In this document: piece after piece, positions 8,204-61,011 of the stretch
Numbering within the stretch: the first letter of the stretch is position 1
Layout: each line of letters opens with the position of its first letter
Assembly: GCA_024679065.1 (NCBI GenBank)
Contig: JAGIQG010000016.1
Span: 9,796,001-9,860,000, forward strand
DNA from: Sphyrna mokarran
Taxonomy: Eukaryota
Direction of reading: 5' to 3'
Length of the DNA: 64,000 nt
Notes under the pieces: generated by a model
Told to the model about the DNA's origin: nothing
Database searches by the model: none
Seen by the model: only the letters and a program-made list of their open reading frames with translations
Translations under genes and position numbers: made by a program

Positions 8204-8224
8204 ACTTGACAAAGTGCGAAAGTG
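8204..8224 (+). pseudogene. Candidate 21-nt heptad micro-exon with non-canonical donor ((D)LTKCES)
   Basis: Good acceptor tttcctatgttccacag, then 21 nt ending in G, then TTAACG. Copies at 31157-31177 and 51039-51059 read (D)LTKCQN followed by TTAAGG instead of GTAAGG. Confidence 0.3.
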
Positions 8225-8547
8225 TTAACGATGGTGTCGATAAATGTTGTCTGTCGCATTGTTTTCTCTGTTCTATTTTGGCACTCACACTTATTGCATT
8301 GTGACAAATATTTTTTTACATTTCCTTTTGTAAATCAAAAAAAAATGAAATGTGTGTTGCGAAACTGATGATACACTCAAAATTGATATTCGTTGAACTG
8401 TTACAATATAGCTGAATGCCATTTTCACCTGGAGGGTAAAATAATAATAAGCATGTCTATATTCAGGTTTACTTTGAGCTTCAGTAATGGTGCAATGTTT
8501 CAGTGACACAAAAATGCGTTCTTAAAACTCTATATTGGCAGTGATGC

Positions 8548-8563
8548 GAAAACGAAAGTGAAA
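8548..8563 (+). promoter_or_regulatory. Triple GAAANN IRF/ISRE-like element
   Basis: GAAAACGAAAGTGAAA. Copy 2 has GAAAGCGAAAGTGAAA (31498-31513); copy 3 keeps two units (51380). An ATTGG lies just upstream. Confidence 0.3.
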
Positions 8564-9064
8564 AAAAACCCAGAAAATTGGGTTTATGAAGAGGTCAAGA
8601 TGATACGATCTGAACTTACGTGGATAACAACACATCAAAGCTGTTTAAGTACACAAGGATAAAACAGGCAGTGTAATAAGGTACATCTTGGTAATGATGG
8701 TGCGTTTGTGTTTATTTGTTTGGCGGGATAGAACGGCGTTATTTGGCCAGCTAATTTGGAAAAAAAAACACGCAATTTTTTGAAGCAAAAGAAAAATCTG
8801 ACTTTGTTTTAGCAGAGTTATTTACATATATATACGCGAAGAGTCATTGACACACAACTGTGGAGATACTCCAACAGAGACGACGACCATGCTTATAGCA
8901 AATCAAATCTCAGATGCAACAATTGAATTATGAAATGTAAAGATGTTAATGTTGTTACCTACCGAAAAAGAGGACAAACAAATAGGAACCCAGCAGGTTT
9001 TCAAGGCTGCTACTTTGCAATTCTATAAATATGTATGCGATTGAAAACCTGAACTAATGCTGAA

Positions 9065-9634
9065 CATAGAACATAGAACATTACAGAGCAGAATAGGCCC
9101 TTCGGCCTTCGATGTTGCGCCGACCAATTATGAAAAAAGCAATGACCCTCCAAACTAAACCATTCCCTTCTCTTCCATAAACTTATCAACTAACCTCGTA
9201 AACACTGCCAAACATGGCGCATCTACAACTGCCGCAGGCAGGGCATTCTACTCCCTAACCATCCTCTGGGGAAATAACCTATATCCGTCTGATATCCGTC
9301 CAAAAACTATCACCCCTTAATTTAAAGCTATGTCCCCTCGTGCTAGCTTTCTCCAGCGTCAGAAAAAGGCTATCACTGTCCACCCTATTTGAACCTCTAA
9401 TCGTCTAATATGTTTCGATAAGGTCTCCTCTTGGCCGCCTTCTTTCTAACGAAAACAACCTCAAATCCCTTAGCCTCTCCTCATAAGACCTGCCCTCCAT
9501 ACCAGGCAACATCCTGGTAAACCTCCTCTGTACCATCTCCAAAGCCTCTACATCTTTCTTATAATGTGGGGACCAGAACTGCACACAATATTCCAAGTGC
9601 GGCCGCACTAGAGTTTTGTACAGTTGCAACATGA
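9065..9634 (-). mobile_element. Young 5'-truncated CR1 LINE insertion, copy 1 only
   Basis: [44 protein letters not shown] is a canonical CR1 ORF2 C-terminus. (GAACATA)n tail; GCTGAA target duplication at 9059 and 9649; empty site in copies 2 and 3. Confidence 0.95.
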
Positions 9635-56590: not shown

Positions 56591-56819
56591 ATTGATAATA
56601 ACACATCGGAACAGCAAACTAAACTTTTTGCAATTGGAGCCGGGCATAGTATCTCAGTTTAAAGACAGTACCACGAGTCAGCAAGACGTTTCAAATCGAC
56701 GTACAGTCAACACACACATTCAGCATGGAATGAAAACTTTGGCCAGCCTCCCTTGTGCTAACCAGGACTCCTAAATTGAAGTAATTCCATTTGCCTGCAA
56801 TGCATTCATGTGACTATCT

Positions 56820-59750
56820 AAATGTACTGCAAATGCACAGTTTTACACACCTCTACCATCTCCTGTGGAAACTGTATCGTTCTGTGTGCCACCAGTTATT
56901 CTAGAAATATGCATCAAGCCCCTTTTAAAGATACAGATCAAGAGGCTTTAAAATCTTCGATATGTAATCCCCCAAACATGGAAAAATATGTCGCTGCCTC
57001 CTCAGTCGATTTGTGCCCACCATGATTTCATGAACGCACATATAATTACCCTTCATTCCCTAAGCTCCAAAAGCAAAGGCACCATATTCTACTACCTTCG
57101 TCAAAAATTCAACCTTCTGGACCGTCTCCAACACAATATCATCATTCCCATAGCAGAACGACGATTATTTTTCAAGATATTCCAAATGTGGCCGCACCAA
57201 CTTCTTGTACATTTCAAACATGACCAACTCCTGGATGCAATGTTCTGACCCGTGGAGCAAGTGTTCAAACACACGATTCACACCCAGGCTGCTAATGCAT
57301 TAAATCGCTTTCAAGGAACGATGTATCTGCACTGCTGGGTCTCTGCGTTCCACAACATTCTTGAGGGTAAAAACAATGAAACTGTCAGGATTGCCCTGAT
57401 GTGCCTTCCCTAAGTGCAGCTATCCACTTTTTGTTCGGAATTAATCTCCAACTTTCATACTTGTTCCACCAAAATAATTGATCAAAATCCAGCTGCGGTC
57501 TTAGGTAAGCTGTGTCACCGTTCACTTCAACATAAAATTTAATATCAAACCGAATCTCACTTAGATTTCCCCCGTCTTGTCATTTGAATTAGTTATACAA
57601 ATGAGATACCACAGTGAAGCAGTATTTCTCCCTGTGGACCATGCTAACAATAAGTCTGCAGTCCGTAAAAAAAAGAAACGTGATCCGTCACCCTATGCAT
57701 GCTTTCCGCAAGTCAATTTTGCAACCTACTGGTTTGCTATCTGTGAATCCTGTGTGCTGTAATCCGACTGATCAGTCTACTATGTGAGACCTTATCGAAG
57801 GCCTTGTTAATGAAGTTAATGTTCCACCACACTGGTGAAAACAATTGCTAAATCATCTCTTCAAAACACTTTGGTAAATTTGTAGTGTACCATTTTCCAC
57901 GCCCGAAGCCATTCTGAATGTCCTCAGCCAGCACAAATGCATATACAAATACATGTAGTTCCTGTTCTTCAGAATGCCCTCCCAAAAAGCAATCACCACT
58001 GACGTCAGGCTCACAAATCAACATTTTCTTATCTTTTTCCTTGCTCTTCTGTGAACAATGCCAAAACAACCGCTTCCCTCCCATCTTCCGGCATGTCACT
58101 CGTGGTTCTAAATGATAGAAACACCACAGCGGTGGTGTGTCATATTTTTCCTCATCTTCCCGCAGTGTCCTGAAAAACTGGGCTTGTTTGAAGCTCGGGA
58201 TTTATCTACGCTGATGTATGTGATACGTCTGCGTTTATCAATTTTGTCTCGATAATGTATCTATGTTTGTGCTTGTTTTGTATTCCAGCATCTTTTTTTT
58301 TCAATAATATGCACGCTTTTACCAACACACCACTCTGCACTTCTGCAAGTTCCCTGGTTTCATATATTTTTATTTCCATGTTAAATCATGATGACAAGTA
58401 TTCACTGAGTATGTCAAGCATCTGTTGTGCCCCCACGCAATGGCGAGCTCGCAGGGATTGCTGGTTCACAGTTATTTACCTCGTAACACTTTTGCACGGC
58501 CTATGCTGGGGACTTGTTTTTGGATTTTCTTTACCGTCACTCCGAAAGCTCTCTCATGTACCATATTTGCTCTTCTGATTTCCCAGCCAAGTGTGCTACT
58601 ACACAAACAATTTAGATCAACGGATTTACTTGATCCAATAGGCCTATGGCGGCAGTTCTTATTTTTATTCACCAGATTCTTAACACTGGTTGTCATCCAG
58701 CGGTCCCCACGCTTACACGGTTCCCATTCACTCGACCCACAACTTTGCTGGCTCTGAAATGTCGATATCTCCCTTTTGAGTATCTGCAATTGCCAGATAA
58801 TCATCTATCAGTAAAAAACTCCCACAATTGAGTATTGAAAGCACATTTCTCGTCCCAAACTAATGGGCCTGGCCCAATTTAGATATCTAATCGGTGGACC
58901 AGATCTATTGTTTTATACATTTAATTACCATGATAATTATGGTCCCTGGTCACAAATTTTCACGTAATTAACACTTCCGCTGTTAGTCATGCCTTATTTC
59001 GCAAAAAGACTTGGAAATTATTCCTTCAATTAAAATTGATTGTGTTTTTTTTTCGTGAACATCCTTTGCTGTATCCTCCCCATGCAATTTCTTAAAACTA
59101 TGGAAGTCCCAGTTTCTCTTCAGCAAGATAAATCTGACTACGTTCAAAACACTGTTTTTAATGCAGTTGTCTTCGACCTCCCAGCATATTTACTCTTATT
59201 TAAAGTTTAGACGATTTTAGTTATCAGTGTCACTCGTAGATTACCCTGCACCGCTATGAAATTACTGCAAACATCCTCACTTGCCACACTAGAGCGCCTG
59301 ACTAAATTCGTCCTCAGCTTTGAATGCGGAGGAAGGGTTGTCGGGCGATTATTGGTGGAAGGTGTGGGCGTTGGTATGCAACCATCCAATCAAAGTATTG
59401 TGCCCTTTCTTATATTTGAGTTACACGCGTGTAGCCGATTTAGACGATGCCTCAGTAATCAGTTCTCTCTGTACTGCCCGTCATATTTGCCCCAATCAAC
59501 ACCGCAATTCTCCTTTCTCTCGTGACTCTCCTTCTATCTTTTCTGATAACTTATGCCCACCCGAACATGTCACTGACAGTCCCATACTCTATGAGCCAGT
59601 TTTTTAAAAAAGATGTTGTATGTCAATAATATATATTTATTCATGCTCTCAATTAGTCTGCCTTAACTGTCCGTTATTTTCCTCTGAAATAAATGCAGTT
59701 TCATTCATCAGTCTTCCCCAGTTCCTTAACAAGCTCATGCCTGTCCTGTC
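56820..59750 (-). mobile_element. Old CR1 LINE fragment (copy 3)
   Basis: Paralogue of 14500-17400. Confidence 0.8.
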
Positions 59751-60990
59751 CTTTGAAAATTTTCACTTTATGATCCAAATTATCGTCAATGTCCACTTTA
59801 TTTCACTGCTCTTCAGTTTCCACTTTCCTGGCAGACAATTTTAAAGCCTCCGAGTTAGATTTAGAAAGAAAAAACTTGCACCACAGTCGCCAATATTCAT
59901 CATAACTGTTTCGAATTCGGGTTGAAATAACCTGGAACTGCTTACAGTTGATAAAAAAAATAAAAATAAAATGAATGGTTGGAATAAAACGAAGACTGAA
60001 TACTAAGTTTTGGCTTCCAAGCCCAAAAAAATAAACTCTTCTAAATGATGTGGTCTGCAAAGCGTTAGAATGTGGCTGGTTCACTGACTAATTGAGTCAC
60101 TATACTTCTGAGGATGATCTTTTCAGGATTCGAAACCTCACAGCAGCAAAATTTCTACTTGCGTCATTGCATTCTTTTCCATCAGCAAGTGTCACAGCCA
60201 AAATATCAGTCTTTTTTTTTAAATTTGTGTCTTGATTTTTGCTGCATTGAACGGGCTTCAGATTCCTAACACATGCAGTGTAAAAACCTTTCATGTGATT
60301 GCTATGCTGATTGTTTTTTTTTCTGGTTCAATGTTACGAGAACTATCTCAGCGTCTCGCTAACTCCGTTTTTAGAGCTTAAACTCCGTATCTGAATAGAG
60401 ACATTAGTTTTTTTTTAATAAGCCGTCAGTGTGTTAGTAGAACTCCTGGAAAACAAATATTCACGTCCTTCATTTCAATGTCCAAGAGGCGATCATTTTA
60501 ACTTCTTTCCAAAGAAGTTCTTTCACAACGATTTACGTTGTGAATATGCTCCAAAATATTCCCCACTGCATATTCATAATATGGGTATGTTCATTTGGGC
60601 TTCATTATACCTTATTCACATTGTGTCATTTCCGTCATAGCGAAGTATTGATATGGTTTCTTTTTGAGCAATACAGCAGCATCATTCAGAAACCAATTCA
60701 AACTAACTTATTCGCAATAAGAAAATGGCAAAGGAATCTTGACTTAATTACTTCGTGTTTGGGTCATCCTCCATTATTTGAATACTTCATGGTGATTATT
60801 CATTTTGTGTCTTCAAGTCGCACACACATGAACTCCACGCAAATTCAATTTATCTCTGTATATTTACTTGAACATGCATTCCCAGATACCCCGGCGAATA
60901 TGAGTTTTAGTTTTCACTCATACATTTTTCAATATCTTATCAATGAAAAAATGTGCAAACTACTCATTGGATATTCTTTACAATCCTTAG

Positions 60991-61011
60991 AACTGAAAAT
61001 AGTCAAAGAAG
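60991..61011 (+). CDS. Candidate 21-nt micro-exon ((E)LKIVKE), copy 3
   Basis: ctttacaatccttag | AACTGAAAATAGTCAAAGAAG | GTAAAG. Confidence 0.5.

Follow-up and report, generated by a model that had tools for sequence, protein, structure and literature searches.

Are the 21-nucleotide (nt) segments that recur in tandem across a 64,000-nt stretch of the Sphyrna mokarran genome (contig JAGIQG010000016.1, here C668, positions 9,796,001–9,860,000; the window) genuine micro-exons, and if so, what kind of gene do they build? An initial annotation read the window as the interior of one large, butyrophilin- or BG-like gene whose coiled coil grows by duplication of whole exon–intron blocks. We find that the micro-exons are very probably real and that they probably belong to a single gene with a terminal B30.2 domain and a soluble product, which we do not class as a butyrophilin. 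Coordinates below are window coordinates extended outward in both directions, so that contig position equals window coordinate plus 9,796,000; pattern and profile searches scanned the 2.77-Gb genome.

The window (1..64000, plus strand) holds about three tandem units, with offsets of 19.9–22.9 kb and identities of 86–96%. They belong to an array of ~22 units and ~390 kb that extends between about -12 kb and +376 kb, starting ~12 kb before the window and ending 312 kb beyond it. The 22 intervals between copies of the candidate exon at 18725 measure 7.7–34 kb and are 84–99.6% identical. Because the window's units differ by 4–15%, we rejected an assembly artefact for the window. Elsewhere in the array (+128,800 to +206,700), a ~43-kb higher-order duplication with 98.9–99.6% identity is either very recent or an assembly duplicate. 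The region of the window is rich in frames of long interspersed nuclear elements (LINEs), presumably of the CR1 type, and many LINE inserts interrupt individual units.

Three phase-1 candidate exons per unit, all of 21 nt and all on the plus strand, retain their splice sites throughout the array. In the first unit these are family C at 10680..10700 (DLRTTDQ), with AG and GT kept in 18 of 18 fully readable copies, family D at 11119..11139 (ALGKCRH; 20 of 20 array copies) and family E at 18725..18745 (ELKVVKE; 23 of 23 copies). The second unit carries family D at 33553..33573 (ALGKCRK) and family E at 38614..38634 (ELKIVKE), and the third at 53429..53449 (ALGKCRK) and 60991..61011 (ELKIVKE). All five candidates that the initial annotation had placed in the first unit were found where it put them, although the peptides it quoted were mixed between copies (11119 and 18725 read as given here, and 8204 reads DLTKCES) and for its 10680 paralogues in units 2 and 3 only the 3′ end can be read, with the donor next (33081..33086 and 52952..52960), the remainder being N. 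In aggregate, both splice sites are intact in all 61 readable array copies of the three families, with no stops and no insertions or deletions; if their 12 splice positions changed at the intron rate, finding all of them unaltered would have a probability of about 0.004. Changes within the exons (9 synonymous at 15 sites, 12 replacing at 45 sites; ratio of replacement to synonymous rates, dN/dS, ~0.44 over 21 changes) give a weak selection signal in the expected direction (Fisher P 0.03, binomial P 0.06). Conservation is highest in family C, whose acceptor is also the strongest and whose pyrimidine tract is a (TCT)26 microsatellite at 10593-10670.

Other candidates are dead or doubtful. Family A (8204..8224, with copies at 31157-31177 and 51039-51059, plus strand) had been proposed as a fourth 21-nt exon with a TT donor. 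The TT donor is indeed there, in 13 of 14 copies, and for that reason we regard 8204 as a dead rather than a live exon; GT occurs only in the last and most diverged copy (+372648), one copy has a 1-nt insertion, the AG is lost in one copy, and the family varies like intron (diversity 0.093 versus 0.091). A further family, F, was overlooked earlier because it is cut short in the window: at 12716..12720 (plus strand) the acceptor and 5 nt survive, the remainder having been lost by a ~0.4-kb deletion that leaves a weak 18-nt frame, and at 55039 (plus strand) the same kind of ~0.4-kb deletion is accompanied by loss of the AG. Intact family F exons of 21 nt stand at 6 of 21 listed places; elsewhere the deletion has cut them. 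The 42-nt (2x21) exon proposed at 10498..10539 (family B; copies at 32869 and 52746, plus strand) is probably no exon and probably a chance match, since stops occur in 2 of 21 copies, GT is missing in 3 of 21 and the peptide is non-heptad. We likewise rejected a repeated 36-nt candidate, present in 13 copies, which carries a stop. The proposed in-frame growth by whole-block duplication retains three phase-1 candidate exons per unit, with the fourth dead and the 42-nt segment doubtful.

This decay raises the possibility that the gene is real while most array copies are skipped or decaying, so that array growth would add more to the DNA than to the protein. In most units families A and F are dead, the acceptors of families D and E are weak (scores of ~1–2.5), and the selection signal rests on 21 changes. 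Yet in all 61 copies of C, D and E both AG and GT are present and neither a stop nor an indel has arisen, against a dead family A that changes at the intron rate, and we consider skipping or decay of most copies very improbable.

We measured exon-length enrichment with a generic splice scan in which AG…GT candidates were counted per length, strand and phase and compared with other lengths or with shuffled sequence. The window yielded six 21-nt candidates on the plus strand, against a shuffle mean of 0.33 (maximum 2 in 40), and one candidate on the minus strand; unit 1 alone yielded three, against a shuffle mean of 0.18. As only three independent families underlie these counts, the window by itself is weak evidence and the flanks decide. 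The flanks of the array are mostly single-copy. Upstream, from -160 to -12 kb, the scan found 16 21-nt candidates on the plus strand versus ~1.1 per other length (P 8e-14) and 0 on the minus strand, with shuffles giving 1.13; downstream, from +376 to +720 kb, there were 32 on the plus strand versus 3.0 per other length and 2 on the minus strand, 12 of the 36 catalogue exons there lying in duplicated segments. Farther out the exon class changes. Seven 27-nt and seven 36-nt candidates occupy -296 to -160 kb, and the 3′ block from +720 to +1,542 kb contains 62 27-nt and 44 36-nt candidates on the plus strand versus 7.1 per other length (minus strand, 7 and 8), with 106 of its 113 candidates open in phase 1 versus 55 and 52 in the other phases.

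Across the 2.77-Gb genome there were 11 matches to a tight 21-nt exon pattern, 10 of them at this locus; the sole outside match, at C771:134,536,504, is chance or another member. Patterns for 27- and 36-nt exons also match elsewhere on C668, at 8.9–14.0 Mb, near SPRY matches.

Chance AG-N21-GT matches multiplied by a repeat could account for the window's three families, and unit 1 does have one 21-nt match on its minus strand. The strand-, length- and phase-specific enrichment in the flanks, together with a common peptide motif, largely refutes this explanation, which is almost certainly wrong.

That motif is heptad-like, as had been proposed. Outside the array there are 52 distinct 21-nt peptides, in which positions 2 (79%) and 5 (71%) are hydrophobic (Leu 30, Cys 16), Cys being the commonest residue at position 5 (16 of 52). 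The 59 36-nt peptides are hydrophobic at positions 2, 5, 9 and 12 (85, 88, 81 and 58%), a 3-4-3 pattern, and the hydrophobicity of 27-nt peptides peaks at position 4, prolonging the heptad after a 36-nt exon. A collagen reading was discarded, as the peptides are without Gly-X-Y and contain 2.6% Gly. Between +725,000 and +1,262,000 lie many 36+27+27-nt repeats; at 30 residues each, they do not divide into whole heptads and might correspond to regular interruptions of the rod.

Where does such a series begin and end? Over 1.84 Mb, plus-strand candidates extend from an exon with an ATG to a single B30.2 exon whose entry phase is the same. The putative start exon, 105 nt at C668:9,499,559 (window -296,441, plus strand), has its ATG 5 nt after the acceptor and is of a type we call MW. 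The last 21-nt exon found, at C668:11,334,284 (plus strand), precedes the B30.2 exon just as 21-nt exons precede its sister B30.2 exons. The terminal exon itself lies at C668:11,338,453-11,338,970 (window +1,542,453, plus strand), with a phase-1 acceptor and a Pfam SPRY match (E 2.7e-11); it is the first B30.2 on the plus strand downstream of the window and the sole B30.2 match in the 1.94-Mb stretch. Pfam PRY gave no match to this domain, and an AlphaFold model of it from a 7-row alignment was of low confidence (predicted local distance difference test, pLDDT, 47.8). Thus the phase-1 series and the downstream B30.2 expected for the interior of one large gene are both present, and from sequence we infer splicing and linkage into one gene.

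If the exons are real, the span could still comprise two or more genes or transcripts, for example a rod gene without B30.2, to which the window would belong, and a separate gene of 36- and 27-nt exons that owns the B30.2. The exon class does change at -160 kb and +720 kb, our scans would miss terminal exons that are short and first exons that are non-coding, and 70 kb were unread. Set against this, the 1.94-Mb stretch contains no second plus-strand start-type exon (its only two MW-type exons are the 105-nt one and a 120-nt one on the minus strand, 33 kb apart) and no second B30.2; the switch from 21-nt to 36/27-nt exons at the 3′ side spans only 8 kb, near the median exon spacing of 4.6 kb; the phase is uniform throughout; and no internal gap in fully read DNA exceeds 36 kb. 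We therefore judge a multi-gene span unlikely and retain one gene.

To count its exons we built a relaxed, class-consistent catalogue in which open candidates on both strands passed one filter. It lists 274 plus-strand candidates (2,389 residues) versus 38 on the minus strand, and these 38 put the net exon count at ~235, before missed exons and ~70 kb of unread DNA. A gene model of ~235–275 micro-exons with a rod of >2,000 residues is therefore likely, as predicted from these counts. The catalogue includes 127 21-nt candidates, 71 of them in the array. Recent duplicated segments hold 80 of 126 21-nt candidates versus 10 of 148 others (13 of 55 21-nt candidates when the array is left out); this excess accords with blocks being freely added where exons are of 21 nt, but it comes from few events and is suggestive only.

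Genome-wide family searches for SPRY, V-set and C-type lectin returned nothing inside the span, scoring only the best candidates and missing the terminal B30.2, which a sister domain used as query did find. The start-exon peptide matched only itself when used as a query. Searching the first 1.66 Mb with relatives by tblastn produced, among the matches listed, LINE and chance matches only, an outcome to be expected for micro-exons.

Those relatives are database models that join a coiled coil to a B30.2 of the same clade, from Callorhinchus (XP_042192744.1, XP_042191566.1), Scyliorhinus (XP_038668997.1, XP_038672308.1), Narcine (XP_069775385.1) and Leucoraja (XP_055510696.1). On sequence evidence, the gene model belongs with them to a chondrichthyan family of micro-exon rod plus B30.2. 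SPRY was the sole Pfam domain above cut-off in the five relatives scanned, and names such as 'TRIM39-like' and 'nuclear-pore anchor-like' mismatch their domain content. Callorhinchus XP_042192744.1, a 1,697-residue rod with a B30.2 of this clade, can be parsed into exon profiles of 12 and 9 residues (z 12.2 versus shuffles and 7.5 versus 7-block shuffles, residues 370–900), two unrelated coiled coils giving z of ~1. Two versions of this model differ in 12 blocks, of which 8 measure 9 or 12 residues, and isoforms of relatives differ internally by 6, 7 or 9 residues; as these blocks come from database models, they are indirect evidence for splicing. The Callorhinchus rod as a query matched only an older model of the same gene, and long database matches considered as rods proved to be fused tandem TRIM models. 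In the open-access literature we found no publications on a chondrichthyan rod plus B30.2 family. The shark gene shares with these models its B30.2 clade and, with Callorhinchus XP_042192744.1, the 12- and 9-residue modules; the models differ in being mostly far shorter, and none was seen with a long Cys-bearing 7-residue block.

Contrary to what a butyrophilin would require, the immunoglobulin (Ig) and transmembrane exons anticipated upstream were not found. No Ig family and no RING or B-box appeared in 148 flank open reading frames (ORFs) or in 121 ORFs from the interval that separates the two start exons (both sets non-repeat, of at least 45–55 residues and not crossing a locus edge), and the five relatives also lacked RING and B-box. 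Among ORFs between -400 kb and +1,264 kb, a scan for the IgV motif produced 2 matches, neither Ig-like on reading, and a genome-wide V-set search that scored the best 150 of 1,261 candidates had no match at the locus. Well-scoring phase-1 open candidates between -400 and -130 kb reached a 19-residue hydropathy of at most 1.1, compared with 2.67 for a chimaera butyrophilin; a 57-nt phase-1-open hydrophobic AG-GT segment within the exon series, at -104478 to -104422 and with a weak donor beside a (GA)n run, is likely chance. When a chimaera butyrophilin served as the genome query, each of the 93 matches was to its B30.2 portion, and none lay on C668.

The B30.2 itself points the same way. In a 30-row tree it fell in a 15-member clade (support 100/100) to which the genome contributes seven copies; one further member is an unnamed protein, and the other seven are named proteins from chimaera, catshark, basking shark, electric ray and skate. 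The 15 rows outside the clade comprise 4 with BTN names and 11 that are TRIM-named or unnamed. With no Ig, transmembrane or RING exon and a separate B30.2 clade, the gene appears built like the tail of a butyrophilin or BG without being classed as one, and it is likely not a membrane butyrophilin.

A secreted or membrane-anchored protein of butyrophilin- or BG-like topology, with d-position cysteines cross-linking the rod, would fit the frequency of Cys at position 5, the short hydrophobic stretch (19-residue hydropathy 1.5–1.6) with which two relatives' models start, and the presence of BTN3A1 (E 3e-16), alongside TRIM58 (E 6e-16), among the best PDB matches of the terminal B30.2. Against it stand the missing Ig families in both ORF sets, the absence of any convincing signal-type ATG exon near the 5′ end and the three other relatives' models without a hydrophobic start. 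We regard this topology as very improbable and favour a soluble product.

Several observations weigh against one gene with a long, soluble, selected rod. Inside the array, phase 1 is open in 63 of 79 candidates versus 72 in phase 2 and is not the most open phase. The 38 minus-strand entries show how noisy the 274-candidate catalogue is, and ~70 kb of the 1.84-Mb span, at C668:11.10–11.14 and 11.15–11.18 Mb, are unread. Family E is barely more conserved than introns (diversity 0.087 versus 0.102), and the rejected family B is more so (0.057 versus 0.096). The 105-nt start exon is open from its acceptor too, so an upstream coding exon is possible. No shark or ray database model of comparable length was found, shorter relatives parse only weakly into 12/9 units (z 0.5–3.1), and two relatives' models have the hydrophobic starts described above.

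With these points weighed, we propose that the window lies in the middle of a single gene, 1.84 Mb long, whose exons would be spliced to give a soluble protein with a short head, a coiled-coil rod and a terminal B30.2. Each 21-nt exon would supply one heptad, with Leu at a and often Cys at d. The 21-nt stretch would have been lengthened by tandem duplication of ~8–34-kb blocks, probably through unequal crossing-over, with each unit adding three heptads, ~60–70 in all. Since gaining or losing a 21-nt phase-1 exon would disturb neither the frame nor the heptad register, blocks with their breakpoints in introns could be added, or exons lost, freely, and exons that lose a splice site, as in families A and F, would simply be skipped. 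The rod would dimerise or oligomerise as a parallel coiled-coil assembly. At a coiled-coil rise of 0.15 nm per residue, it might hold B30.2 ligand-binding heads ~0.3 µm from the N-terminus, as a long cytoplasmic scaffold or tether.

What the window adds is a model of rod growth by large segmental duplication, in which exon–intron blocks are duplicated, frame and register are kept and single exons die harmlessly; it allows one to ask whether array copy number varies among individuals and alters protein length. In public annotation, genes composed almost entirely of 21–36-nt exons seem to be broken up or misnamed, so that a family common to chimaeras, rays and sharks would be largely hidden. More tentatively, and with rather less than even confidence, we suggest that the family consists of sub-micrometre, B30.2-tipped rods built from hundreds of 7-, 9- and 12-codon exons, and that the length of this member is set by the copy number of 10–25-kb blocks, making it a length-polymorphic, cysteine-stitched tether encoded by one of the largest coding loci of the genome.

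The locus has further relatives nearby. With a sister B30.2 domain as the genome query, related B30.2 exons were detected at six places on C668 and at one on C1548. Closest to the terminal B30.2, at 61% identity, is a minus-strand B30.2 at 8.56 Mb; a sister B30.2 domain on C668 is 71% identical to a catshark protein. A head-to-head sister gene model runs on the minus strand from C668:9,466,804 (window -329196) to C668:8,557,717, with the 120-nt MW-type start exon followed by 21-nt candidates at -362330, -374585 and -390725 and by exon-pattern matches at 8.95–9.07 Mb. The head-to-head MW exons and the 61%-identical minus-strand B30.2 would fit an old inverted duplication. Five further same-clade B30.2 exons lie at C668:11,879,142(+), 11,925,598(-), 13,715,935(+) and 14,320,298(+) and at C1548:101,418,263(-), the last inside a large cluster of other B30.2 exons at 92–113 Mb.

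Outside the main array, smaller exon-bearing duplications occur at +470,000 to +565,000 (~51-kb offset, 95–97%) and at +780,000 to +841,000 (~31–38-kb offsets, 82–90%). Intronic open frames resembling long terminal repeat retroelements were recognized by eye at +626,652 to +632,786 (RNase H/integrase-like) and at +159,320 and +202,119 (gag-like).

How does this gene compare with known systems? Enterophilins are soluble long heptad zippers that end in B30.2, mouse Skint5 and Skint6 are very large genes with many small tail exons, and block duplication of symmetric exons within a gene has precedents in titin, nebulin and LPA. A search of the open-access literature for Skint exon structure found nothing; on enterophilins, it yielded only an enterophilin-1/SNX1 citation (PMC13749957). 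TRIM E3 ligases likewise place a coiled coil before PRY-SPRY and differ in their RING and B-box, neither of which was found in the shark gene or the five relatives.

Butyrophilins are described as having Ig domains, a membrane segment, few heptads and a B30.2 (PMC8813856, PMC4046983), and chicken BG as having an IgV, a membrane segment and 27–37 mostly 21-nt exons whose number varies between genes (PMC5938342, PMC4046983). The BG tail is there a coiled coil of 21-nt exons with a split first codon and a hydrophobic stripe at codons 4 and 7 (PMC5938342). With butyrophilins, the shark gene shares short phase-1 heptad-coding exons followed by a terminal B30.2, the splice linkage being predicted here; it differs in that no IgV, IgC or transmembrane exon was found, in having hundreds of micro-exons versus few heptads, and in its separate B30.2 clade (100/100). 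With chicken BG and the BG-derived zipper protein it shares a long tail of 21-nt exons, whereas the described organisation of BG includes an IgV and a transmembrane exon but not a B30.2, and its stripe lies at codons 4 and 7 rather than at 2 and 5. Exons of 27 and 36 nt and an extent of 1.8 Mb further set the shark gene apart. Its origin may lie in a butyrophilin-type tail in which the Ig and membrane part was lost or never present, and the gene bears on how the heptad-exon and B30.2 tail of butyrophilins and BG arose.

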